From contig JAMCVK010000021.1 of NCBI GenBank assembly GCA_023475225.1, positions 14,132-78,131 on the forward strand: 64,000 nt of DNA. Direction: 5' to 3'. This stretch comes from Chloroflexota bacterium (lineage in GTDB: Bacteria > Chloroflexota > UBA6077 > FW602-bin22 > JAMCVK01). The position numbers and the translations under genes were made by a program. The notes under the pieces were generated by a model. That model saw only the letters and a program-made list of their open reading frames with translations, had not been told where the DNA came from and searched no databases. This document shows, one piece after another, positions 11,294 to 27,191 of the stretch. The stretch's first letter is position 1, and every line of letters begins with the position of its first letter.

Positions 11294-12271
11294 TTGGCTG
11301 TCTTAGTGACGGGGGGTGCTGGTTATATCGGTAGTGTCGTCGTGGAAGAGCTGCTGAGGGATGGCCAGGAGGTGATCATCTGCGATAACCTATCTACCGG
11401 ACATCGCCAGGCCGTCCTGGAAGGAGCCATCTTCGTCCAGGCCGATCTATCTGATAGAACAGTGCTCACGGCCATCTTTCAGCATTACCCCATTGAGGCA
11501 GTCATCCACATGGCGGCGAGCAGCCTGGTGAGCGAATCAATGGTCGATCCAGCACCCTTTTTCTATAATAACCTCGTGAATGGCTGGAATCTACTCGAGA
11601 GCATGCGGGCCAATGGGGTGAAAAGGATCGTGTTCTCCTCAACAGCCGCCGTCTACGGGGAGCCCAAGAACATCCCCATCCGTGAGGATGACCCGCTGGA
11701 GCCAACCAACCCCTATGGGGAATCAAAACTCTCCCTGGAGCGGATGCTCCGCTGGTATGAACAGGCCTATGGCTTGCGCCATATCTCGCTGCGCTACTTC
11801 AACGCTGCGGGAGCTTCGGAGCAGCTAGGGGAAGACCATCGCCCGGAGACGCATCTCATCCCCGTCGTCTTGCAGACGGCCCTGGGACAACGCCTCTGGG
11901 TGGAGGTGTTCGGAACAGACTACGATACAGTAGATGGCACCTGTATCAGAGACTACATTCACGTGACTGATCTCGCCCTGGCCCACGTGCTGGCTTTGAA
12001 AGCGCTGGACGAGGGGCGCAGCGGCGTATATAACCTGGGCAATGGTGATGGCTTCTCTGTGTTGCAGGTCATCGAGACGGCGCGCCAGGTTACCGGGCGA
12101 GAGATACCGACCATCGTGAAGGGGCGCCGTCTGGGCGATCCAGCCATCCTGGTGGCCAGCTCGGAAAGGATCAGGTCCGAGTTAAACTGGCAGCCACGCT
12201 TCGCCGATCTAAAGACCATCATTCGCACGGCCTGGGAATGGCTCCAGAAGCACCCTGACGGCTACGTCTAG
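11294..12271 (+). CDS. galE: UDP-glucose 4-epimerase
   Basis: VLVTGGAGYIGS Rossmann motif, YGESK catalytic motif, RYFNAAGA. TTG at 11294 is preceded by GGAGGAGG. The upstream part of ORF 11144.. is repeat-derived. Confidence 0.9.
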   Translation: MAVLVTGGAGYIGSVVVEELLRDGQEVIICDNLSTGHRQAVLEGAIFVQADLSDRTVLTAIFQHYPIEAVIHMAASSLVSESMVDPAPFFYNNLVNGWNLLESMRANGVKRIVFSSTAAVYGEPKNIPIREDDPLEPTNPYGESKLSLERMLRWYEQAYGLRHISLRYFNAAGASEQLGEDHRPETHLIPVVLQTALGQRLWVEVFGTDYDTVDGTCIRDYIHVTDLALAHVLALKALDEGRSGVYNLGNGDGFSVLQVIETARQVTGREIPTIVKGRRLGDPAILVASSERIRSELNWQPRFADLKTIIRTAWEWLQKHPDGYV

Positions 12272-12304
12272 GGGACAATCCATATACAGGACGCTGTAAA
12301 GGAA

Positions 12305-12498
12305 GCGATGCCATCATGGCGCTCTTCAACGCCCCAATCCCTCAGCCTGAGCATCGGAGGGTGGCCCTGGAAGCAGCCATCGCCCTCCAGCAAAAGGCAG
12401 CTAGCCTGAATCTGCCCTTCGCCATTGGCATCGGCATCAACAGCGGCCTGGCCATAGTCGGCAATGTCGGCGGGGGAGAGGTGACAGATTACACAGCC
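12305..12498 (+). pseudogene. Internal fragment of a class III adenylate/guanylate cyclase domain (divergent copy of 15063-15259)
   Basis: Translates to AIMALFNAPIPQPEHRRVALEAAIALQ...GINSGLAIVGNVGGGEVTDYTA, paralogous to the intact cyclase at 14888-15448. It lacks both N- and C-terminal parts. Confidence 0.75.
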
Positions 12499-12797
12499 AG
12501 TTCCGCGGACAGGAACCACTCCACGGCTGCTCGACCATAGATGGGTTGAACGATCTGCTTGCCTTTTGGATACGGACTGGCAGCTTTGAACCCTACTTGC
12601 TCAAGCAGGTGGCGAACCTGAGCAAGTTCGCTCGGCGCCAACATCAGCCGGACTTCGTAACCCTTTTTATATTTTCTCCGGCCAAGCGCCTCGATGCGTT
12701 CCTTGTTTGCCACCCGTATGTAGCCCTTCCTTTGAAAGAACTGCTTCAACTGAACAGCTGGCTGTTCACTTGCGGCCGATTGGAGTAGATGATTCAT
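12489..12797 (-). CDS. Hypothetical protein (3' end runs into the cyclase-fragment junction)
   Basis: 102-aa ORF in an AT-richer cassette with no recognisable motif. Confidence 0.35.
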   Translation of the reverse strand: MNHLLQSAASEQPAVQLKQFFQRKGYIRVANKERIEALGRRKYKKGYEVRLMLAPSELAQVRHLLEQVGFKAASPYPKGKQIVQPIYGRAAVEWFLSAELAV

Positions 12798-13380: not shown

Positions 13381-13398
13381 CATGGGTTGGAGGTAACT

Positions 13399-13779
13399 AT
13401 GTCCCAGCGTGAGCCGAAGCCCATCCATGAGGCAGGTTTCCCCCGATATGGAGATATTTACGAGGTGAACCTTGACCCTGTTGTTGGGTCTGAAACTGGT
13501 AAGCATCGGCCGGCGCTAGTTGTTTCCAACGACATCAACAATGAATTCTCCCAGATCGTCACCGTCCTTCCTATTACCGGGCAGCCTGCCAAGAAACAGT
13601 ACCCTTTCGAAGTTCTCGTTCCCAAAGGCGTTGCGGGCCTCACCGTAGATTCTCAGATAAAGGCCAATCAGATTAGAACGGTGGATAAACGTCGCTTGGT
13701 CAGCTTCAGAGGCTCGCTGCCTTTACAATACCTTCCACAGGTAGAGAAGGCGCTGAAAATCCACCTGAATTTGAAATAG
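13399..13779 (+). CDS. mazF: Type II toxin, MazF/PemK family endoribonuclease
   Basis: YGDIYEVNLDPVVGSETGKHRPALVVSND...VTVLPITG...IKANQIRTVDKRRL matches MazF/PemK. ATG 13399 follows GGAGGT. Confidence 0.85.
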   Translation: MSQREPKPIHEAGFPRYGDIYEVNLDPVVGSETGKHRPALVVSNDINNEFSQIVTVLPITGQPAKKQYPFEVLVPKGVAGLTVDSQIKANQIRTVDKRRLVSFRGSLPLQYLPQVEKALKIHLNLK

Positions 13780-14380: not shown

Positions 14381-14457
14381 CGAGCTTCGCCGACCTGAAG
14401 ACAATCGTTGGCGCAGCCTGGAAACGGCTCCAAGGTCACTCTAACGGCTACGTCTAG
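14381..14457 (+). pseudogene. Remnant of a galE 3' end (divergent duplicate of 12195-12271)
   Basis: cgagcttcgccgacctgaagacaatcg...aacggctacgtctag aligns with the last ~25 codons plus stop of galE. The following gacaatccatatacaag also matches the sequence after the galE stop. Confidence 0.7.
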
Positions 14458-14506
14458 GTGACAATCCATATACAAGGTGCTATATTTAAGGGGGGAGGTG
14501 TGAAGG

Positions 14507-14887: not shown

Positions 14888-15448
14888 GTGCGCTTTCCTG
14901 CCGTGGAGCAGGAAATTACGGTCCTGTTCGCCGATGTCCGCGGTTTCACCTCCCTGGCTGAGCGGACACCTCTGGACCAATTACGGAAATCACTCAACGT
15001 TTTATTCGTCGCCGCCAGCGACCTTCTGATGCAACGAGATGCGCTGATAGACAAATTTCTGGGCGATGCCATTATGGCCCTCTTCAACGCTCCAATTCCT
15101 CAGTCCCAGCATCGGCAGGTGGCCCTTGAAGCAGCCATCGCCCTTCAGGAAGAGGTGGCGGGCTTGAATCTACCCTTTGCCATCGGGATCGGCATCAACA
15201 GTGGCCTAGCCATAGTCGGCAACGTCGGTGGGGGAGAGGTGACGGACTACACAGCCATCGGCGACACGGTGAACGTGGCGGCTCGTCTATCGGGCCTGGC
15301 CCAGAAGGGCGAGATCCTTGCTGGGGCCTCTACCTGTGAGGGACAGACCCATCTCCTCCCATCAGGGTATTCCTGTGAGCCGCTGAGCCTTCAAGTTAAG
15401 GGGAGAGAGGAGCCAGTAGCAGCCTATCGCCTCTATCCAGTCGGATGA
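14888..15448 (+). CDS. Class III adenylate/guanylate cyclase catalytic domain protein
   Basis: EITVLFADVRGFTSLAE, DKFLGDAIMALFNAP, GINSGLAIVGNVGG and TAIGDTVNVAARL motifs. An in-frame 43-codon CxxC mini-ORF (14750-14881) is separated from it only by TGA (see findings). Confidence 0.8.
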   Translation: MRFPAVEQEITVLFADVRGFTSLAERTPLDQLRKSLNVLFVAASDLLMQRDALIDKFLGDAIMALFNAPIPQSQHRQVALEAAIALQEEVAGLNLPFAIGIGINSGLAIVGNVGGGEVTDYTAIGDTVNVAARLSGLAQKGEILAGASTCEGQTHLLPSGYSCEPLSLQVKGREEPVAAYRLYPVG

Positions 15449-15831: not shown

Positions 15832-16854
15832 TTAGCCCTGCAACGATGGCGCTTCAGGTTGCGGAGGTGACGGCGGTGGCTGCTGAGGGAGTGGGACAGG
15901 TTGGGTTGGCGGTGGACCTTGGATAACAACCTGTTGAGCCAGCTTTATAAAGGCCCGCCCTTGATGGTTTTCTATTATCTTCGTAGCGGCAGTAGCCGAA
16001 AACGTATGCATGCAAGCGTGATAGGCAGTTAGCACCTTGTCTTGCAGGTTCTGGTCTGATTCGAGGAATTCTATCCTCATGCCCAATGATCTGAGATAAT
16101 TCCTATCAAGCGGCCGGCCATGAGTTCGAAGCTCTTCGTGGTCGCTGAGGGCGGAAGCGATTCGCTTTGCTCGCTCCTCCCGTTTGCGTGACCTTCGTAA
16201 CATCCATGTGGTGAGCCAGCTTGACACCAGTTCCCGAGACAACGCTATGGCATTTTCGCACTGTTCCAGAAGGGCTGGACCATACTGCTGCAGACTCGGC
16301 ACCCAGACAGCTAGGTTTGCCCTGTCCTCTGCGCACTCCCGCTTGGCACGGGCGAACTGATCCAGTATCGCTTGTGCAGGAACGGACTGAATACCCAGAG
16401 GAGTTGCAAGCTGAAATTGGGGGTCGATTGGACCCATGTAAGACTGGCGGCCCATGACAACTATATTGGCAGCACAGGCAAGCATCGTTGCGGCAGACAT
16501 CGCCTCATGAGGGACAAATACACGGATGTCCCGGAATTTGCTCCGCAAGTACTTTACGATAGCTTCGGTGGCCTCTGCGCGTCCACCAGGACTGTGCAGC
16601 ACGATGTCCAATTTTCGTCCTTGCAGACCGTAGAACACCTCCATGAAGCCTTCGATATCCTCATTGGTAATACTGAGAAGTTCAGGAGGCACCCTGGGCT
16701 TTTGGAGATGCCCGCTTGCGTATAGCACCACATTGCGCCCTGTATAACTAGCCAGGTCTGCCAGGGCCTCACGCCGTATTACATCGAGGGCATCCCTTCG
16801 TCCTTGTGCTTGGAGTTCCTGCAGCCTTCTTAGCAATTCCCCCCAGGTTGGCAT
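15832..16854 (-). CDS. SDH-family Clp-fold serine proteinase (SppA/ClpP-like) with Pro-rich C-terminal tail
   Basis: LDIVLHSPGGRAEATEAIVKYLR...VFVPHEAMSAATMLACAANIVVMGRQSYMGPIDPQ matches the serine dehydrogenase proteinase family. The tail is PPPTQPVPLPQQPPPSPPQPEAP. Confidence 0.75.
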   Translation of the reverse strand: MPTWGELLRRLQELQAQGRRDALDVIRREALADLASYTGRNVVLYASGHLQKPRVPPELLSITNEDIEGFMEVFYGLQGRKLDIVLHSPGGRAEATEAIVKYLRSKFRDIRVFVPHEAMSAATMLACAANIVVMGRQSYMGPIDPQFQLATPLGIQSVPAQAILDQFARAKRECAEDRANLAVWVPSLQQYGPALLEQCENAIALSRELVSSWLTTWMLRRSRKREERAKRIASALSDHEELRTHGRPLDRNYLRSLGMRIEFLESDQNLQDKVLTAYHACMHTFSATAATKIIENHQGRAFIKLAQQVVIQGPPPTQPVPLPQQPPPSPPQPEAPSLQG

Positions 16855-17220: not shown

Positions 17221-20200
17221 TTAGCCAGCCCAATCTTTGCATAACAATTCAGCTTGCTCCAGTACTGTCAGGGTGGCTTTTTCATGTTTATCTGGCGGGT
17301 AGCCGTACCGGCGAAGGAGTCGCTTGACCGCTATTCGCAACCTGGCGCGGACGCTCTCTCTGATCGTCCAGTCGATAGTGACATTGCGCCGAACCGTTTC
17401 TACGAGTTCACGTGCTATCGTCCTAAGCGTTTCGTCACCCAACACCTTCACCGCGCTATCGTTCACCTCGAGGGCGTCGTAGAACGCCTCCTCTTCTTCG
17501 CTTAGTCCCAGCTTTTCGCCCAGCGCTTTGGCATCGCGCATTTGCTTAGCCAGTTCGATGAGTTCTAGGATCACCTGGGCAGCCTCGATGGTACGATTCT
17601 GATATCTACGAATGGTGGTTTCAAGCATCTCGGCAAACGAACGGGACTGGACCAGGTTCTTTCTGGCTCGTGCCTTGATTTCGTCATTAAGGAGCTTCTG
17701 CAGCAACTCGAGGGCAAGATTACGATGTGGCATACCCTGCAGCTCTGTAAGGAACTCGTCAGACAGGATTGAGATATCCGGTTTCTTGAGACTGGCAGCG
17801 CTGAATATGTCGACTACCTCGTCAGAAGATACCGCTCTGGATACGATTTGACGAACAGCCGAATCCAACTCCTCTTCAGCTTTTCCTGGTAGCTGGGTGT
17901 TCTTGGCTATGGCCGCTCGTACCGTCTGGAAAAAGTCAACATCGTCCTTGATCTTAAGCGCTTCCCCATGAGGGACGGAGAGGGCGAAAGCCTTCGATAG
18001 CTCCGTTACGGCTTGCAGTAGCCGCACTTTTCCATCCTTCTGGCTCAAGATATGCTCCATAGCCGCAGGAATGATCGCCAGGCGCTCAGCTGGGGCACCG
18101 GTGATGAACTTAGAATAATCAAAGCCATGAAACATGCCACAGACGATCTCATACTTTTCGAGCATTATCGCCACCGCATCTTCCTGGGGGATTCCCGTGT
18201 CGCGGCGGGAGCCTTCCGTGTAGTCCATAAGGGCCTTTTTTAGCTCGTCGGCGATGCCCAGGTAATCAACCACCAGGCCTCCGGGCTTATCACGAAAGAC
18301 CCGATTTACACGGGCTATGGCCTGCATCAGGCCGTGGCCACGCATGGGCTTATCAATGTACATAGTGTGCAGGCAGGGCGCATCGAAGCCAGTGAGCCAC
18401 ATATCCCGAACGATGACTAGTTTCAATGAGCCTGCAGGGTCTTTCATCCGCTTCTTGATGAACTCCCGGCGTTCTTTGTTACGGATGTGAGGCTGAAAAT
18501 TCTGCGGGTCGCTTGCGGAGCCGGTCATGACTACCTTAATCACACCCTTATCGTCGTCTGGATGGTGCCAAGAGGGGCGAAGTTTGGTGATGGCGTCATA
18601 AAGGTCCACGCAGATATGCCGGCTCATGCACACTATCATCCCTTTGCCGTCTATAGCCTCCAGGCGTTGCTCGAAGTGCTCCACGATGTCCTTGGCCACA
18701 AGCCCTATCCGTTTCTCGGTCCCTACCATCGACTCAAGGCGGGCCCACTTGGTCTTAAGCCTCTCCCTGACAGTTTCCTCCTCACCTTCAGTAACCTCCT
18801 CGAAGTCAGGGTCTATGTGTGGCCTTTCCTCCTCCTTTAGTTCGAGCTTCGCCAGCCGCCCCTCATAGAAGATACGGACAGTAGCACCATCCTCCACTGC
18901 TCGCTGAATGTCGTAGATACTGATGTAGTCCCCGAATACCGCCGGGGTGCTTCTGTCGTCTTTTTCGATGGGGGTGCCAGTGAACCCTATGAACGAAGCA
19001 TTGGGGAGGGCATCTCGCATGTGGCGGGCGAAGCCATCGATGAAATCATACTGGCTGCGATGAGCTTCATCAGCAATGACGACGATATTGCGGCGGTCCG
19101 ACAGCAGCGGGAACCTCCCCCCACCCTCTGGGAGGAACTTCTGGATAGTGGTGAATACGATACCCCCAGAGGCTACCTTGAGGAGGTCTCTCAAATGCTC
19201 TCGGCTCTCGGCTTGCACAGGCTGCTGCCTGAGCAGATCATGGGCCAAGGCGAAGTTGCCAAAGAGCTGCTGGTCGAGGTCATTCCTGTCAGTCAATAAG
19301 ACCAGGGTAGGGTTCTCCATAGCCGGATGAAGGACGATCTTTCCGGCGTAGAACACCATCGTAAGGCTCTTGCCCGCACCCTGGGTATGCCATACCACGC
19401 CTACTCGCTTATCCCCCTTGGGCGATGTCGCCCCCACCGTGGCTGCTACTGCTGCATTGACGGCGTGATATTGATGATAGGCTGCTACCTTCTTGGCTAT
19501 CCTGGAGCCGTCTACCTCGAAAAGAATGAAGTGGCGCACCAGGTCAAGGAAGCGGCTCTTCTCGAACATGCCGTTGAGGAGCACCTCCAGCTCTGAGACA
19601 CCCTTCGGAGCAGCCGTGGCTCCGTCGCTGGTGCGCCAGGGGAGGAACCACTCCCAGCCCGCCGTCAGCGTTCCCACTCGGGCCTCGGTGCCATCGCTGA
19701 TGACCAGCAACTCGTTATAGGGGAAAAGAGACGGGATGTCCGTCTTGTAGGTCTGAAACTGGTTGAACGCAGCCTTAATGGTGGCGTTCTCGTCGACCGG
19801 ATTCTTCAGCTCTATCACTGCAAGGGGGAGACCATTGACAAAAACTACCAGGTCGGAGCGGCGGTTATGCTGCCCTTCGATAACGGTGAACTGATTGACC
19901 ACCAGCCAGTCGTTCCGGTCTGGGTTGGCAAAATCCACCAGCCAGACCTTGTCGCCCACGATGCGCCCCTCTTCGTTGCGATACTCCACATCCACGCCCT
20001 CAGTCAGCATCTTGTGGAACTGACGGTTGTTGACCATGAGGCTGGGGCTATCAGGGCGGGTGACCTTTCTGAAGGCGTCTTCCAGAGCCTCGGTAGGAAT
20101 ATCCGGGTTCAACGAGGCCAGGGCAGAGCGCAGCCTTTCTACCAGCACTACTTCCGAGTAGTTTCTGCGCTCGGGATGTGGGCCGTCGCAGGCAATGTCC

Positions 20201-20289
20201 GGCCCAGGCAAATGCTGATAGCCGAGACCCTTGAGCCAGTCAATGGTGGCTTCTTCTACTACGGACTCAGTGAGGACGTGCTGGATCAT
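17221..20289 (-). CDS. hsdR: Type I restriction enzyme, R subunit
   Basis: 1022 aa. N-terminal nuclease region ([15 protein letters not shown]), helicase motifs GAGKS and ADEAHRSQ, plus TGTPI and the C-terminal HsdR domain. Confidence 0.95.
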
Positions 20290-21077
20290 GGCGCCGTGCC
20301 CCCTTTGAGACGTCTTACGAGGCCAGTTTCGCTCTCGTGTTTGTCCCGGATTCTAAACGCCAACTGACCTTGCACAGGTGAGTCATCCCAGGTGCGACCC
20401 TGCAGCAGGCGTCCGGCACGCTTCTTACTCACCCCTCCCCACTGTTTGAAGAAAAATGGCACGCTAGCCGCCAGACACTGTTCCCTGATTTGTGTTACCC
20501 AGTTCTCTCTTACAGGCCTTGCCCCTGGCCCCGACTCACCGCCGACTATCACCCAGTGGATCCCATGAAGATCCAGGTCTGGCAGCGGTCCTAGTAACGG
20601 TTCGAGAGACAAAAACCTTGTTCGGGCACTGGTCTGGCGCAGATGGTCAGCACGGAAGATGTAATCCATATTTTCGATGCTGACACCCATCCACACATTC
20701 TCGGGCCAGTGAATCGCTGAGTTAAGTTCGAGCAAACGCTGTGATCGTTTCGTAAGAATCTGAAATTGGTGCCACCAAGCGCGCCGCATGACATCGAAAA
20801 CCTTCAAGATGAATGGCACAGGAACGTCTTCGTGGAACAAATCGCTCATAGAATTAACAAAAATCATCAGTGGCTTCTTCCAGCTTAGCGGTGCCTCTAA
20901 TACAGGCTCATGCAACGTCAGTTTGAATCCATTTGAGTAATTAGGTTGCCCCATCGCTTGCAGCCGGAACGCCATTCTCTCAGCGTAGCAATGCTTGCAT
21001 CCGGGACTGACCTTAGTGCAGCCCGTTAGTGGGTTCCACGTGGAATCGGTCCACTCGATGGAAGATTTCGTCGCCAT
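20286..21077 (-). CDS. DUF5131 (phage Gp37/Gp68 family) protein with N-terminal three-Cys motif
   Basis: [28 protein letters not shown] (C-x6-C-x2-C), ...[11 protein letters not shown]..., [25 protein letters not shown] and FFFKQWGG are typical of the family. Its stop overlaps the hsdR start (ATGA). Confidence 0.85.
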
Positions 21078-21079
21078 AG

Positions 21080-22213
21080 CTATATGTTACCCTTCGATGG
21101 AAACATGACCGTTACTGTGTCCGCAAATGTAGATTCACCCTTGCGCCTGCGCTGCTGATCTGCAGGAGGGTCGGCTGAAACCTTACCTTGGGCCTCAAGT
21201 CTTGCGAGAACATCCTTATAATTGGATTTGATATAGGGCGTTCCGACATGATGCTGATTGTACACCTCCAGCATTGTCATCTTCCGGCTAGCAAAGTCAT
21301 TCAGCAGCATACCTTCGAGATCATCAAGTGGTCGTGAAAGATCAAAAAGCAAGGGTTGGCTGCGCGTGGCCGGGTTGTATTCGAAGGATGGCACGCCTTG
21401 TTGTGCGCTTGAGCTTTCCTTAGCCATAATTTCCTTCATGATTTCGTAGCCTTTGATATGCTTGCTAACAAAAACCAAATGATGACTAGTGCGGTTGCCA
21501 CTGCCGTTCTTGAAACGGAATGGCAGGACGTACTCGCCGCCCATTTCCTTAAGTGCTTCGGCAAGGGCTTCAACAATAGTCAACTCTCGCTTGTGAGGTC
21601 GCATAGGCTCGAGTTGCTCCCGGAGCTTATCTGCGCGTTCTTTGCCAAAAAGGGCGTTCATGTGTTCTTTAACAGATTCGTTATTAAACCCCATATTGAT
21701 GCGGTTATAGTTAAAGAAAACAATACAATCACAACCCCAATCCTTAAGCACCAAGTTAATGAGACGAAGTGATAGTCCCTTGTAGCCCCAAGGGTCCACA
21801 AAAAAGAGGGTGGGGACAAGGCGCATCTGTTCAAACATCTTGACTATTTCTTCCCCAACTAGCGCGTTGTAAACTTGTGGCTTGTGCCTGAGCACTTTTA
21901 TACCTGGAATCGAATCAATAGCTTGGCAGAGCGTCTGAGTATTGTTCGAATCCGCATCGTTAAAAATGGTAACTAGCATTTCTCGCATATCTGGGTCCTG
22001 AATCGCACGTTCTAGGACAAGCAATGGTGTGGACTTTGTCCCGTCCTTATAGCGACCTGGCCCAGCAAACAGGTCTATGTAAGCGATTTTGTTCCCCCTT
22101 CCTTTTTGAGACGGAATAATCACCTTAGCCCAAGCCCAGAAGTATTTTGCAACTATTTCAGCCTTAACCTGGGACTGCTCTTGAGACTCGTCAAAGAAAG
22201 AGTTGCCGGTCAT
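21080..22213 (-). CDS. tcmP: Three-Cys-motif partner protein TcmP-like (Rossmann/methyltransferase-like)
   Basis: N-terminal [30 protein letters not shown] (SAM-binding motif I-like), [10 protein letters not shown] (motif IV-like). Positioned next to DUF5131, as is typical for this family. Its start overlaps the hsdS stop (ATGA). Confidence 0.75.
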
Positions 22214-23487
22214 GCTATCGCCTCCACGAACTTCTCCGCATCCTTCACCCGTATCTCCCCGGACAGGAGCTTGGGCAATAGGCTAGCTCGGATAGCACCA
22301 AGGGCTTGGGATTCGTCATCGTTAGCTTTCATCTTTTGAAACCAGGGCTTCACCTGTTGCTCGAACCGTTCGGCGATAGAGGGCAAGGGAACTGCCACCC
22401 AGTAATGGTCAAAACAGCCAGGGTCGACACGCTGGCGGCCAGACGTTCCGGTCATTGCCTGGATAGCATGGGCCCGAAAGTCAGGATGCCGGGCAAGACA
22501 GTAATTGAAAGGCATACCCAGAGGAGGCTTTGGCCCTAGCACAATGAATTCAGTGGAGCCCCAGCCAATCTCCCCATCTTGTAGAAAGTCGACTACTGCG
22601 GTCTTGCCATTTTCCAGGCAGGGTGTTATGCGGGCTAGTAGAACATCACCGTTGGCGAAACGTGATCCTGAACCAGAGAACGGCCTCCTAATCGTTTCCA
22701 ACACACGTGCTGATGCTGTGGGTAGAGCAGACATATCAACATAGACGGCGTTCGCTCCCCGCTCAAGTCTGCGAGGTGGGTTAATACCGACCGCTTCGGC
22801 AACAGTAGCGCACCGCCATCCCTTTGGTATTGGCCCCACGAGAGAATCCTGCATTCCCTGGTCTCGGAAAGGCTCAAGGCCCACAAACCAACTCTTGAAG
22901 AGGGCCCCGGCCATTGCCTCCAGGGTCTCGTTCATGCGGCGGTTCAGCTCAATCTTGTCATCCAGCGCCCCCAAGATGGCAGCGATGGCCCGCTGCTCTG
23001 GGAGGGGAGGAAGGGGAATCTTGATAGTCTTCAGGTACGTTACCGGCTGTGCGATCGACGGAACCCCCACTTGGGCTGCATTGGCCAGAAGCTTGTGTTG
23101 TCCTTCTGCTGTCTTGAAGTAGTACACCACAAACTGGGGGATAACGTGTTGAGGGTTGCAGCGCATGTAGAACTGCCGTTGGGAAATGACATAGCGCTCG
23201 TATCGTGAGTTCCAAGGAATATACGAGACCTGCCCGATATTACCAGCGTGGGTGAAGACCACATCCCCCCTCTGGACGTTTGCATTCTTCAGCCGGTCTG
23301 CGTGCTCGGGAGTGATGAAGTTGAATCCGGGCGTCTCGTCAAGTCTGGAGTCATGAAGGTGTTGGCCACTAATAACTGGGACGCCTTCGGAAACAAATGT
23401 CTCAACCTTGATTGATGAGCCGAAAGGCCCCATCGCTACCTTCTCTGCGACTTCACCAATCGAGGCGGTGTGCCACTCACCGGACAT
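22210..23487 (-). CDS. hsdS: Type I restriction-modification system, S (specificity) subunit
   Basis: Two target-recognition domains separated by the conserved LPPLPEQRAIAAILGALDDKIELNRRMNETLEAMAGALFKSWF helix, plus a C-terminal conserved helix. Confidence 0.9.
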   Translation of the reverse strand: MSGEWHTASIGEVAEKVAMGPFGSSIKVETFVSEGVPVISGQHLHDSRLDETPGFNFITPEHADRLKNANVQRGDVVFTHAGNIGQVSYIPWNSRYERYVISQRQFYMRCNPQHVIPQFVVYYFKTAEGQHKLLANAAQVGVPSIAQPVTYLKTIKIPLPPLPEQRAIAAILGALDDKIELNRRMNETLEAMAGALFKSWFVGLEPFRDQGMQDSLVGPIPKGWRCATVAEAVGINPPRRLERGANAVYVDMSALPTASARVLETIRRPFSGSGSRFANGDVLLARITPCLENGKTAVVDFLQDGEIGWGSTEFIVLGPKPPLGMPFNYCLARHPDFRAHAIQAMTGTSGRQRVDPGCFDHYWVAVPLPSIAERFEQQVKPWFQKMKANDDESQALGAIRASLLPKLLSGEIRVKDAEKFVEAIA

Positions 23488-23524
23488 ACCCCACTCCTTT
23501 CACGGAAGGCGACCATCTACCATT

Positions 23525-24040
23525 TCAGCTCAACTTCACTCCCAGGGCACGAAGCATCTCAAATGTATCAATGTACCGAATGTTGAATGCCCGGCAGACA
23601 TTGGGAATCGGAATCCTCCGCCTCACGTTGGCATCAAACCGTTCAAGCGTCACGATGACGCATCCCCTCGCCTTAGCATACGCGATCAGCCAGCCATCCA
23701 CCGCGCTGGCAAACTCAGCCTTGGCCGCGTCGGTAAACTGGCTCTGACCCTGAGCCCAAGTCATGACCTGACGATAAGCTTGAACAACATCATCGTGACC
23801 CGTTGACTCAAACCACTGGTGGAAACTACCATTTGCCCATTGCTTGAGGTCATCCTTACCTCGGTCAATTTCCACCTTGATGCGGTCAATGCTCTGAACC
23901 TGGCCACTTTCCGCATGCTCAATTAATTGCTCCCAGAAGCGCGGGGCAATGTCGAAAGCGTAGTACCGACGTGCCGCCTCTATGAACACGTTAGCATCCA
24001 GGAGATACACGGGCAGAAGATACACGGGAAGGGCGGTCAC
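23525..24040 (-). CDS. DUF4411 (PIN-like) protein
   Basis: YLLDANVFIEAARRYYAFDIAPRFWEQL...WLIAYAKARGCVIVTLE fits the DUF4411/PIN-like pattern. The GTG start overlaps the ImmA-like gene stop (GTGA). The true start may be slightly downstream. Confidence 0.7.
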   Translation of the reverse strand: MTALPVYLLPVYLLDANVFIEAARRYYAFDIAPRFWEQLIEHAESGQVQSIDRIKVEIDRGKDDLKQWANGSFHQWFESTGHDDVVQAYRQVMTWAQGQSQFTDAAKAEFASAVDGWLIAYAKARGCVIVTLERFDANVRRRIPIPNVCRAFNIRYIDTFEMLRALGVKLS

Positions 24041-25230
24041 ACCAGCGCTCCTGAGGCGAGGAATCTCCCATACCTCTCAAATGTCTGTCCGTAAAGCCCT
24101 GTTAGCTCGTAGGCTTCTCGGTAGAGAAGATTGCCCTCTCTTACAGCGCGCATCACTGCTTCCGCAAAGCGCCGACCGAGGCGGAGATTCTGGGTGGCGT
24201 AGAAGTTGCCGCCCTCTTGACCTCGTGCAGCAGCCGAGCGCTCGGCTTGCTGATAGGCAACATAGAAGTCTAGAAACTCGTGTTTGGTGATGAGACCCAG
24301 ATCGAGAGCCTTGCGAGCGCCGACGACTTCGCTGACCTTGAACTGGCGAGCGATGGCTTGGAAAGGGTCAGGCCCTTGTTTGATGAATGGCCACATCTCT
24401 TGTAGCTCATCTCTCGGGACCAGGAACTCAGCGGCAACCTGGCTGCAAGCCCGTTCCGTCTCGTCGTCCGCGGGTTGAAGTTCCCGCAAGTCAAATGCAG
24501 CACTGCTACCGAACCATATATGCGCCAGCTCGTGTGCCAGCGTGAACATCTGCGCAGCCTTGCTGTCGGCACCGTTGACAAAGACCAACGGTGCATACTC
24601 ATCCACCAGGATGAAGCCACGAAACTCGGTGACGTTCAACTTGCGATGCGGATTGTTTCCAACGATGCTGTTCACGACCACAAGGATCCCGGCCTCCTCT
24701 ATCCTGCTCTGTAGCTCTCGCAGCGCCTCAGTCCAAGTGGACTGTTGGGCCGTCCATCCTTGAGCGAGACCCAATGTGCGCCTCATCTCGCGAGCCAACC
24801 CCTCCGCTATGTCCGTGAGCCGTGCAGAGCGGACAAAGCTCAACGGTTCGTGACCTTGTTCCGTCAGATACTCCCGCATCCATGCTTGGCGGCGCTCCAT
24901 CATCTGGATGGTCTCAAGCAGGTCAGGACTGGACCGGCGTAGAGGCTCATCGCCCAGCGTGCGGAAGTGGGGAACAGGCAATCGCTCCTGGGGCGGCTCA
25001 GAAAGGAACAGGTATCCCAGCGGGGTCGAGGTGGCCTTCGCGAGCTCCTCAAGCTGACGCAGCGTCGGTCGGCTCTTACCGCTGAGCCACTCCGGCAGCT
25101 TGGGGAACTTCCGCGCGACGGCTCCTGGGCTGCCCGAGCGCTCCATAGCCCAGCGGAGGACAGGCTCACTGATGGTGACCCGCGTCATGCTGCGATGTCC
25201 TTTCTCAGCCTGCATTCGAGTTCTGGCCAC
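24037..25230 (-). CDS. HTH(XRE)-ImmA/IrrE family zinc metallopeptidase fusion
   Basis: N-terminal HTH-like segment (PTLRQLEELAKATSTPLGYLF) and an HEXXH motif (AHELAHIWFG) in a COG2856-like domain. The GTG start abuts the hsdM stop. Confidence 0.8.
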   Translation of the reverse strand: MARTRMQAEKGHRSMTRVTISEPVLRWAMERSGSPGAVARKFPKLPEWLSGKSRPTLRQLEELAKATSTPLGYLFLSEPPQERLPVPHFRTLGDEPLRRSSPDLLETIQMMERRQAWMREYLTEQGHEPLSFVRSARLTDIAEGLAREMRRTLGLAQGWTAQQSTWTEALRELQSRIEEAGILVVVNSIVGNNPHRKLNVTEFRGFILVDEYAPLVFVNGADSKAAQMFTLAHELAHIWFGSSAAFDLRELQPADDETERACSQVAAEFLVPRDELQEMWPFIKQGPDPFQAIARQFKVSEVVGARKALDLGLITKHEFLDFYVAYQQAERSAAARGQEGGNFYATQNLRLGRRFAEAVMRAVREGNLLYREAYELTGLYGQTFERYGRFLASGALV

Positions 25231-26850
25231 TTACCCGCCATGCCCCAACCCCCTCAGGTTCTGGCGAATCACCGCCTCAAGCCTGGCTGACTCAGCGAAC
25301 TGCTCCTCCAGTTTCCCCGTCAGCCGTGATATCTTCTCCTCAAAGGGTTCGTCTTCGTCCTCTATGTCCTCAGCCCCCACATAGCGGCCTGGAGTGAGCA
25401 CATGGCTGTGGGCGGCGATTTCCTCGGTGGAGGCCGACTTGCAGAAACCCGGAATGTCCTGGTACGACTCCACACCCTCGTCTCCCCGCCAGGCGTGGTA
25501 CGTCCCAGCAATGCGGGCTATATCCTCGTCGGTGAGCTCCCGGTGCACCCGGTCAATCATGCGCCCCATCCTGCGGGCATCAATGAAAAGGACCTGGCGG
25601 CGGCGATCACGAAACCAGCGGTTGCGCTTGTCTCGGGCCAGGAACCAGAGACAAGCGGGTATCTGGGTGTTATAGAATAGCTGGCCGGGGAGGGCTACCA
25701 TGCAGTCCACCAGGTCGGCCTCAATGATGTTCCTGCGGATTTCCCTCTCTCCAGATTGATTAGAGGACATAGAGCCATTGGCCAGCACGAAGCCCGCCAG
25801 GCCGGTGGGGGTGAGGTGGTGGATGAAGTGTTGTACCCAGGCGAAGTTGGCGTTGTTTACCGGGGGCACGCCGTATTTCCAGCGGACGTCCTCACGGAGC
25901 TGCTCACCACCCCAGTCGTTGTCATTAAAAGGCGGATTGGCGAGGATGAAATCGGCCCTCAGGTCCTTGTGCAGGTCGTTCCTGAAGGAGTCTGCGTTGC
26001 GTGGGCCAAGATTGCCCTCTATGCCACGGATGGCCAGGTTCATCTTGCACAGTCGCCAGGTGGTGTGGTTCGACTCCTGCCCGTAGATGGAGATGTCGCC
26101 GATGCGGCCGCCGTGGGCCTCAACGAATTTCTCGCTCTGGACAAACATGCCGCCCGACCCGCAACAGGGATCAAAGACACGGCCCCTATAAGGTGCCAGC
26201 ATCTCGACCAGCAGGCGAACGATGCAGCGAGGCGTGTAGAACTGACCCCCTTTCTTGCCTTCGGCGCTAGCGAATTGGCCGAGGAAGTATTCATAGACAC
26301 GGCCTAGAATGTCCTTGGAGCGGTTTTCAGCATCCCCCAGGCCGATGGAGCTGATAAGGTCGATAATCTCCCCCAATCGCTGCTTGTCCAGGGCCGGGCG
26401 GGCGTAGTCCTTGGGAAGCACACCTTTTAGGGACAGATTGTCCCGCTCTATGGCGACCAGGGCATCATCCACCAGCTTGCCGATGGTTGGTTGTTTGGCG
26501 TTGGCCTGGAGATACCGCCAGCGGGCCTCCCGGGGCACCCAGAAAACACTGGCAGCGACGTACTCATCACGATCCTCGAGGAGTTCATATCGGGCCTGCG
26601 GCTCTTTGATGTAGTATCCGTGCGAAGGATCGGAGGTCCACAGACGGAGCTGCTGGTAGTGCTCCTGGAAAGCATCGGAAACGTATTTCAAGAAGATAAG
26701 GCCCAGGACCACATGCTTGTACTCCGCCGCATCCATATTGCTGCGCAGCTTGTCAGCAGCCTGCCAGAGCTTCTCCTCGAAGCCGAGATTGGCCCCGTTG
26801 GACTTCTGGACCCTGTAGCTAGTCAGGCTTGAACTTCTCCTTCTTGCCAC
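25231..26850 (-). CDS. hsdM: Type I restriction-modification system, M (N6-adenine methyltransferase) subunit
   Basis: HsdM N-terminal domain ([32 protein letters not shown]), motif I (DPCCGSGGM) and motif IV (LANPPFN). GTG start with GGAGG 6 nt upstream. Confidence 0.95.
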
Positions 26851-27011: not shown

Positions 27012-27086
27012 TGGTGGAGGCGAGGGGATTCGAACCCCTGACTTCTTGCATGCGAAGCAAGCGCTCTCCCACTGAGCTACGCCCCC
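27012..27086 (-). tRNA. tRNA-Ala (anticodon CGC), CCA encoded
   Basis: The reverse complement folds as a cloverleaf: GGGGGCG-TA-GCTC-AGTGGGA-GAGC-G-CTTGC-TTCGCAT-GCAAG-AAGTC-AGGGG-TTCGAAT-CCCCT-CGCCTCC-ACCA. It has the G3:U70 Ala identity pair. Confidence 0.92.
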
Positions 27087-27191
27087 TATGTCCGATTATA
27101 GGTGTAGCAGCCGTCAGTGTCAATTGAGCTTGGAACTGTCTGCATCAGAAGACTCAGCGGCCAGCGCCCTGTGAGCTTTACCTGAAATGAG

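Follow-up and report, generated by a model that had tools for sequence, protein, structure and literature searches.

A probable VapBC52-type toxin–antitoxin pair as cargo of the hsdM–hsdS slot in a Chloroflexi type I restriction–modification operon

The DNA analysed here is a stretch of 64,000 nt (the window) from an environmental, metagenome-assembled genome of the Chloroflexi. It carries a type I restriction–modification (R–M) operon, and between the hsdM and hsdS genes of that operon lie two further genes encoding a helix-turn-helix (HTH)–M78 peptidase and a DUF4411 protein. We propose that the two genes probably form a toxin–antitoxin (TA) and abortive-infection module of the VapBC52 type, which occupies the hsdM–hsdS slot as swappable cargo. 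The two parts of this proposal, a protease-gated PIN toxin module and its docking in type I R–M operons, are each already known. An initial annotation of the window had placed a two-gene pair between hsdM and hsdS, and two minus-strand open reading frames (ORFs), confirmed by Pfam, indeed fill positions 23525–25230.

The assignment came from a comparison with the chains of the Protein Data Bank (PDB). A phmmer search with the peptidase, called the antitoxin here, returned chain 9vzy_A, a "HTH cro/C1-type domain-containing protein", with E = 1.5e-19 over residues 7–350 (344 residues; antitoxin residues are numbered on the 383-aa protein). The family profile of the DUF4411 protein, called the toxin here, matched 9vzy_D and 9vzz, "DUF4411 family protein", with E = 7e-14. 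The names, the chain lengths and the 3:6 chain counts of these entries match the VapB52/VapC52 (Rv2515c/Rv2514c) complex of Mycobacterium tuberculosis as described by Singh et al. (NAR 2026, PMC13273310). A literature search by the two PDB codes gave nothing relevant, and Foldseek did not return 9vzy or 9vzz from a PDB copy with entries to April 2026, which may predate both. Judged by sequence similarity, the window pair is homologous to the VapBC52 toxin–antitoxin.

According to that paper, VapB52 and VapC52 form a 1:2 antitoxin:toxin complex. The N-terminal domain of VapB52 is required for toxin binding, and the C-terminal domain occludes the PIN active site. The VapB52 peptidase is CapP-like and is activated by single-stranded DNA (ssDNA); it then removes the N-terminal domain of the antitoxin itself by a cut close to a conserved "FR" motif. 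VapC52 cuts tRNAs at anticodon or variable loops, those of phage D29 included, and its overexpression made Mycobacterium smegmatis resistant to phage. The system was characterised as two genes without any R–M system (PMC13273310).

The same self-cleaving, toxin-releasing logic is well supported for the window pair by homology. By extension from VapBC52, two toxin molecules, as a dimer, would be bound by the N- and C-terminal domains of one antitoxin. The peptidase would be activated by a signal of infection or damage, which is ssDNA for VapB52. The peptidase would then cut its own linker at the FR motif, and the toxin-binding N-terminal domain would be removed. The freed PIN toxin would cleave host and phage tRNAs, and growth and phage production would be arrested. 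The protease-controlled, PIN-like toxin module of the initial annotation thus holds, given the homology to VapBC52 and the PIN fold of DUF4411. The cleavage of a partner repressor, which that annotation had expected of the protease, does not agree with the characterised homologue, which cuts itself at the linker. Most likely the module works independently of restriction and in parallel to it.

Peptidase_M78 is the sole significant Pfam family in the antitoxin (1.3e-13), and HTH_3 stays below threshold (E = 0.024). The AlphaFold2 (AF2) model, with a mean predicted local distance difference test score (pLDDT) of 75, consists of a five-helix N-terminal domain (residues 8–61), a disordered linker (62–87), the peptidase core and a helical C-terminal domain (302–378). 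Foldseek matched the N-terminal domain to C.Csp231I, lambda cI and P22 c2 with probabilities of 0.5–0.84, and the peptidase core to IrrE, ssDNA-bound PprI and M. tuberculosis PrpR. IrrE (3DTI), PrpR (6D2S) and C.Csp231I (4JCY) are also reported as structural neighbours of VapB52 (PMC13273310). The HTH domain claimed initially therefore falls short at the level of sequence but is recovered by structure, where it resembles Xre-type domains.

The HEXXH motif named in the initial annotation is encoded in the antitoxin, and it is invariant, together with a third zinc ligand, E245, among 74 homologues (Table 1). The linker contains an FR motif, F75–R76, in which the arginine is kept in all 74 homologues and the phenylalanine in 63. 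Linker residues 68–83 have a pLDDT below 50, and the low-confidence segments of the model coincide with the FR linker and with the loop after HEXXH. By analogy with VapB52, F75–R76 is the probable self-cleavage site. A cysteine, C248, lies three residues past the glutamate ligand, and the sections of the VapBC52 paper covered here (PMC13273310) hold no discussion of the corresponding cysteine of VapB52. In PADLOC, fourteen RmrA models matched the antitoxin (1.6e-11 to 1.8e-4, several over residues 40–328), as did capP (1.4e-11). NCBIfam gave for the antitoxin merely "spr1629 antitoxin", far below threshold (42 vs 335 bits).

The DUF4411 protein is predicted to be a PIN-fold toxin with nuclease activity. 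The AF2 model (pLDDT 86) has the VapC/FitB PIN toxins as its best Foldseek matches in the PDB, with a probability of 1.0. Four acidic residues, D15, E57, D115 and E133, are invariant in 20 homologues and are spaced in a way similar to the four acidic residues of canonical PIN domains. The PIN-like fold and the acidic residues suggested at the outset were thus both found when checked. A 15-bp in-frame tandem duplication adds the residues LPVYL to the N-terminus of the toxin, just before strand β1, which ends in D15. In comparison with most of 19 homologues (typically 166 aa), LPVYL is a five-residue insertion in the 171-aa window protein. An internal GTG is a possible alternative start. NCBIfam returned nothing for the toxin.

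Some observations weigh against placing the pair with VapBC52. Identity to VapBC52 is low, and for the toxin the similarity is seen at the profile level only. PADLOC has no model for the toxin, neither at E ≤ 0.01 nor at E ≤ 10. The duplication at the toxin N-terminus could affect function, although AF2 still puts strand β1 and D15 normally. The fourth point concerns the cysteine switch. In VapB52, as described in PMC13273310, C229 is a fourth zinc ligand that occludes the active site, and it aligns with F232 of the window antitoxin. Among the 74 relatives this position is F (52/74), S, V or T and never Cys, and a cysteine anywhere in the loop occurs in 2/74. The inhibition and activation of the peptidase, and possibly its trigger, may therefore differ in the window clade.

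The pair is part of a run of seven co-directional minus-strand genes in the order hsdM, antitoxin, toxin, hsdS, TcmP, DUF5131 and hsdR (Table 1). By Pfam and PADLOC all three hsd subunits are full length, and so the restriction system looks intact. The initial annotation had the antitoxin begin at a GTG abutting the hsdM stop and run for 397 aa. The ORF does reach GTG 25230, which adjoins the hsdM stop codon, but the true start is very probably ATG 25188, which gives 383 aa. An identical public protein (P0121) has 383 aa, and in an alignment of 30 homologues (65–84% identical) nearly all start with "MTR..." at this position, M1 and R3 being conserved in at least 90%. The exceptions are two proteins with longer N-termini and one truncated protein. 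A ribosome-binding site, AAAGGA, precedes this ATG by 9 nt.

With the start at ATG 25188, a spacer of 42 nt separates hsdM and the antitoxin gene. The same spacing recurs in the related operons L165–L169, and in sequence the spacer shares 64–79% identity with those of two related operons and 69% with that of one free-standing copy. The 37-nt spacing between toxin and hsdS recurs in L167–L169 and L174–L175. The GTGA overlap of antitoxin stop and toxin start, also read correctly in the initial annotation, recurs in homologous loci (L081, L162, L166 and L167) and is predicted to couple the translation of the two genes. The downstream junctions are tight, with a 4-nt overlap of hsdS and TcmP, a 2-nt gap between TcmP and DUF5131 and a 4-nt overlap of DUF5131 and hsdR. 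A promoter and terminator scan gave sites no commoner than those of shuffled sequence, none of them close to the pair, and no internal promoter can be claimed from it. Because the pair is separated from hsdM by 42 nt only and has no promoter-like site near it, it probably shares a transcript with the hsd genes.

An R–M controller protein, C.Csp231I, is among the best structural matches of the N-terminal domain, and the ImmA/IrrE family is known to cleave repressors. The peptidase could thus regulate the restriction operon in the manner of a C protein, or act for a mobile element as an anti-repressor of the ImmA/ImmR type, with DUF4411 as an accessory nuclease. However, the C.Csp231I match reflects the generic Xre fold, and VapB52, which is not known to lie in an R–M operon, matches it likewise (PMC13273310). 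No separate repressor or integrase is encoded nearby, and the pair moves as a unit into unrelated contexts. When nine upstream regions were aligned in search of an operator, the ribosome-binding region was the only element common to them. We consider such a regulatory role very improbable.

A VapBC52-type module that acts on its own agrees with the distribution of the pair. With the toxin profile we sampled 80 DUF4411 loci from bacteria and archaea of many phyla. In 80/80 the gene directly upstream, on the strand of the toxin gene, encodes an antitoxin homologue, and because every locus keeps this arrangement the adjacency is not due to chance. The family is large, with 1487 toxin matches and more than 7800 antitoxin matches. 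The window clade, at 60–84% identity, includes Chloroflexota, Actinomycetota, Planctomycetota, Nitrospirota, Bacillota, Methanothrix, Nitrosopumilus and others. Such sequence conservation across phyla implies frequent horizontal transfer under strong constraint. For the most part the 80 loci are flanked directly by unrelated housekeeping genes. More distant relatives were found on plasmids (43) and in phage records (2), and one plasmid copy sits beside HipBA modules.

Plasmid-borne relatives adjoining HipBA, and the classical type II TA architecture with its 4-nt overlap, are also in keeping with a pair that is mainly an addiction module, guarding the R–M island or its cargo slot from loss without a role in phage defence. 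In four surveyed loci (L010, L011, L027 and L060) the toxin gene is broken by an in-frame stop or frameshift and the antitoxin is intact. This suggests recurrent inactivation of the toxin, which is typical of decaying selfish modules. The phage resistance conferred by VapC52 overexpression, as reported in PMC13273310, speaks against pure addiction, as does RosmerTA, in which a related Zn-peptidase antitoxin takes part in defence against phage (Millman et al. 2022, bioRxiv 10.1101/2022.05.11.491447; Ernits et al. 2023, PMC10440598). The neighbours in the hsdM–hsdS and hsdS–hsdR slots are overwhelmingly defence genes. Addiction and defence are not mutually exclusive; as a role of its own, addiction appears quite improbable, and it is less likely, as is the regulatory role, than a defence module of the VapBC52 type.

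Type I hsd genes adjoin the pair in 11/80 loci, most often in the order hsdM–hsdS–[pair]–hsdR, and no hsd gene was detected near the other 69. The hsd genes of most of the 11 loci match those of the window weakly (E about 1e-22 to 1e-33), and the type I family of most of these loci is therefore a more distant one. On the antitoxin tree the 11 loci do not group together, and the association with hsd genes thus arose several times. The recurrence of the pair in hsd operons, a survey that followed from the initial annotation, is thus real and of several origins, but most copies lie elsewhere.

Closer to the window the association is stronger. Eight closest lineages had a readable context (the window and seven relatives, antitoxin identity 72–79%). 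Five of them, the window, P0123, P0128, P0143 and P0150, have the arrangement hsdM–[pair]–hsdS in the window's own type I family. P0123 has both the 42-nt upstream and the 37-nt downstream spacer of the window, P0128 has the 42-nt one and P0150 the 37-nt one. The hsdS–hsdR cargo differs from one embedded close lineage to the next and is TcmP/DUF5131, an OLD-like ATPase–TOPRIM protein or unknown genes. The remaining three lineages (P0125, P0136 and P0138) are free-standing.

One free-standing copy, L162, retains a fossil of the 3′ end of hsdM, which is again separated by 42 nt from the start codon of the antitoxin gene. The fossil covers 66 nt upstream of the spacer (L162:7930–8000) and translates as "...ALDVALSRNL*ELGYGG*", vs "...RLDEAIEANLKELGYGG*" in L167. 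It was seen by a gapless comparison anchored on the start codon, together with translation; blastn-short missed it. Because of this fossil we conclude that L162 descends from an R–M-embedded copy. Downstream of the L162 pair, a remnant of the head of hsdS (L163:2140, MTGEFR vs MAGEWR) is only suggestive.

These data bear on whether the module is wired to the type I enzyme as a PrrC-like fail-safe, which would fire when anti-restriction blocks the enzyme, or on ssDNA or degradation products after restriction. The initial annotation had drawn such a link from co-location. The 11 hsd-adjoining loci scattered over the antitoxin tree, the embedding in 5/8 closest lineages, the shared spacers (42 nt in three and 37 nt in three of the five embedded lineages, the window included) and the L162 fossil favour it somewhat. 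DNA breakage could also yield ssDNA, the reported trigger of VapB52 (PMC13273310). However, a PrrC-like element would be expected essentially only inside type I R–M operons; 69/80 relatives have no detected hsd neighbour and mostly housekeeping flanks, and free-standing copies and plasmid copies beside other TA modules exist. VapBC52 itself was characterised in the absence of R–M. Many unrelated cargo families occupy the same slots, which argues for a shared site of insertion or expression rather than for specific coupling, and no interaction surface or shared regulator was identified. We regard the fail-safe as unlikely, and the link to restriction made at the outset is not supported by these data.

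To see how ordinary such cargo is, we examined metagenomic type I operons that are relatives of the window HsdM (at least 80 listed, 64–80% identity) and scored a junction as carrying extra DNA when this extra DNA exceeded 400 bp. Among the matches listed, extra DNA was present at 25/64 hsdM–hsdS junctions and at 40/44 hsdS–hsdR junctions. The ORFs at the hsdM–hsdS junctions of the matches listed encode DUF1016/YhcG nucleases, ORF6N/KilA-N, Fic/DOC, HEPN, Abi_2, TIR and Schlafen-like proteins. Those at the hsdS–hsdR junctions, again among the matches listed, encode AAA_21/AAA_15 ATPases, GmrSD, DUF5131, RhuM, DUF4276, DarT with Macro, Mrr, one M78 peptidase and IS200. The pair itself is found in 0/80 of the matches listed; this value is not a frequency, and the sample omitted operons such as L167, which was found later through the antitoxin. 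In one related operon (L173:5334–5893) the hsdM–hsdS slot holds two tandem cassettes, first a DUF4258 gene and its small partner and then the ImmA–DUF4411 pair, which indicates that cargo can stack in one slot.

Interleaving of hsd genes with cargo of many defence-type families is therefore ordinary. The order hsdM–[2 genes]–hsdS–[2 genes]–hsdR given in the initial annotation is correct, but it is not unusual as had been thought. That type I operons serve as docking sites, also stated there, is already published. Defence or TA cargo in such operons is exemplified by TgvAB (PMC11411939) and by DarTG2 with RptR (PMC12255303), PIN-like toxins coupled to type I R–M subunits were described by Matelska et al. 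2017 (PMC5499597), and the "guilt-by-embedding" approach found defence genes embedded in type I operons (bioRxiv 10.1101/2024.01.29.577857). The TcmP/DUF5131 pair of the window matches the PADLOC candidates PDC-M30A/B and PDC-M41A/B, which appear to come from the guilt-by-embedding approach.

A further reading takes the module in the window clade as a dedicated partner of the type I enzyme, without the cysteine switch, reliant on the hsd promoter and with a peptidase that responds either to something restriction produces or to its failure. The trigger would be, for example, an anti-restriction protein, or ssDNA that arises once HsdR has cut and exonucleases have processed the DNA. If this were true, the system would be a two-layer relay, with restriction as the first layer and abortive infection by tRNA cleavage as the second. 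The conserved junctions of 42 nt and 37 nt and the hsdM fossil of L162 would then mark a co-evolved composite and not a mere landing site. We hold this to be quite unlikely, and retain the reading of a self-contained VapBC52-type module carried as cargo.

Table 1. Positions in the window of the type I operon, its cargo genes and the main sites within the antitoxin and the toxin.
Feature	Position	Strand	Basis or remark
hsdM, methyltransferase subunit, first gene of the operon	25231–26850	−	Pfam N6_Mtase 4e-110, HsdM_N 4.4e-25; PADLOC MTase_I 1.4e-230
hsdM–antitoxin spacer, 42 nt, with ribosome-binding site (GAGAAAGGA)	25189–25230	−	sequence read
Antitoxin gene, 383 aa, VapB52 homologue	24037–25188	−	phmmer vs 9vzy_A, Pfam M78, PADLOC, AF2/Foldseek
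Antitoxin N-terminal five-helix Xre-like HTH domain, residues 1–61	25006–25188	−	AF2 and Foldseek
FR motif F75–R76 in linker, probable self-cleavage site	24961–24966	−	aligned with VapB52 "DFRR"
HEXXH zinc-binding motif H219 E220 L A H223 (CAC GAG CTG GCG CAT)	24520–24534	−	74/74 homologues
Third zinc ligand E245	24454–24456	−	74/74 homologues
C248, three residues past the Glu ligand	24445–24447	−	72/74 homologues; also in VapB52
Antitoxin stop/toxin start overlap GTGA, 4 nt	24037–24040	−	sequence read
Toxin gene DUF4411, 171 aa, VapC52 homologue	23525–24040	−	Pfam DUF4411 7.7e-57
15-bp in-frame tandem duplication (CCCGTGTATCT[T/C]CTG x2), 14/15 identical	23999–24028	−	sequence read
Toxin D15	23996–23998	−	aligned to catalytic D6 of 9vzy_D
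Toxin E57	23870–23872	−	invariant in 20 homologues
Toxin D115	23696–23698	−	invariant in 20 homologues
Toxin E133	23642–23644	−	invariant in 20 homologues
Toxin–hsdS spacer, 37 nt	23488–23524	−	ORF coordinates and sequence read
hsdS, specificity subunit	22210–23487	−	Pfam Methylase_S 1.7e-18; PADLOC Specificity_I 3.9e-115
Second cargo pair, hsdS–hsdR slot	20286–22213	−	TcmP and DUF5131
TcmP gene	21080–22213	−	TIGR04474 232 bits
DUF5131 gene	20286–21077	−	Pfam DUF5131 3.6e-101
hsdR, restriction subunit, HindI-like C-terminal domain	17221–20289	−	Pfam HSDR_N, SWI2_SNF2, T1RH-like_C 6.9e-135

The second cargo pair differs from its surroundings in composition. The TcmP/DUF5131 region (20400–22200) has 45–50% GC, vs 55–62% in the hsd genes and the ImmA–DUF4411 pair, and this lower GC suggests that TcmP/DUF5131 was acquired more recently. 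The same pair is present in the hsdS–hsdR slot of L091. Directly downstream of hsdR and on the same strand is a gene for an SDH-type ClpP-like serine protease (15832–16854, minus strand), which has no PADLOC match. On the other side, 162 nt upstream of hsdM and on the same strand, lies a tRNA-Ala(CGC) with a perfect TTGACA-17-TATAAT promoter (27012–27123, minus strand). The promoter and terminator scan found no terminator-like site between this tRNA and hsdM, and for these reasons the restriction operon may sit at a tRNA-linked island site or may receive read-through transcription. A tRNA-anchored island with direct-repeat boundaries was considered and rejected, since the repeats found do not involve the tRNA.

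The 3′ end of an epimerase gene and the DNA downstream of it (12198–12499) are repeated at 14384–14484 (101 nt, 80%) and at 15063–15257 (195 nt, 86%), in what looks like a rearrangement or insertion scar. Between the original and its repeat pieces are a MazF/PemK toxin ORF (13387–13779) and two unknown ORFs. The second piece lies inside a plus-strand ORF (14888–15448) for a 186-aa nucleotide cyclase, matched by PADLOC Pycsar PycC (1.2e-20) and Pfam Guanylate_cyc (1e-17). No obvious effector gene stands beside this ORF; within this defence island it may represent a Pycsar cyclase that is truncated or an orphan.

The window pair is an environmental example of a TA and defence family whose first member was characterised in 2026. 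What it adds is incremental: a large, highly conserved clade that lacks the cysteine switch proposed for VapB52 and CapP, and a recurrent hsdM–[pair]–hsdS composite with repeated 42-nt and 37-nt junctions and an hsdM fossil beside a free-standing copy. In addition, both inter-gene junctions of the window's type I family often hold extra genes, many of them of defence type. These data are useful for the annotation of defence islands and for the choice of a second model system; alone they open no new question.

Several known systems resemble the pair in part. Matelska et al. 2017 (PMC5499597) predicted as a TA the DUF4411.1 architecture, in which DUF4411 lies downstream of a fused HTH–DUF955 protein, and the window pair has exactly this architecture. 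Theirs was a bioinformatic prediction of three-component HTH/DUF955/PIN-like systems, in which the protease was thought to degrade the HTH protein and so derepress toxin transcription, not to free a bound toxin. RosmerTA (RmrT/RmrA) likewise combines an ImmA-type Zn-peptidase antitoxin carrying an N-terminal HTH with a variable toxin, and the window antitoxin matches RmrA models; ImmA-type antitoxins are also paired with PIN-like toxins (PMC10440598). The DUF4411 toxin, however, has no RmrT model match even at E = 10, and the Rosmer toxins that have been characterised include proteins that depolarise the membrane rather than PIN RNases.

The peptidase fold of the window antitoxin is common to CapP/CapH of CBASS and to IrrE/DdrO of Deinococcus. 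Those peptidases are activated by DNA damage or ssDNA. They cleave a separate HTH repressor and so switch on transcription, whereas the window antitoxin, like VapB52, has its HTH-like domain and the protease in one chain and would be expected to set a bound toxin free. As an embedded cassette, co-directional between hsd genes, the pair resembles PrrC, RloA–F, TgvAB, DarTG2 and the PDC candidates. These mostly occupy the hsdS–hsdR slot, whereas the window pair lies between hsdM and hsdS. To our knowledge, functional coupling to the restriction enzyme has been demonstrated, among embedded defence genes, for PrrC only.

VapBC52 remains the closest comparison. The two systems are homologous in sequence over their full length and share the gene order, an HTH–M78 peptidase antitoxin followed by a DUF4411 PIN toxin, and the three-domain antitoxin with IrrE, PrpR and C.Csp231I among its structural neighbours. 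They also share HEXXH with its glutamate, the FR linker motif, the cysteine after the glutamate ligand (C248) and the catalytic aspartate of the toxin. The window antitoxin differs in the cysteine switch described above and in lacking the 23-residue disordered N-terminal extension of VapB52, and its clade is unusually conserved, with 60–84% identity across bacterial and archaeal phyla. VapBC52 is presumably not embedded in a type I R–M operon, whereas the window copy sits within one.

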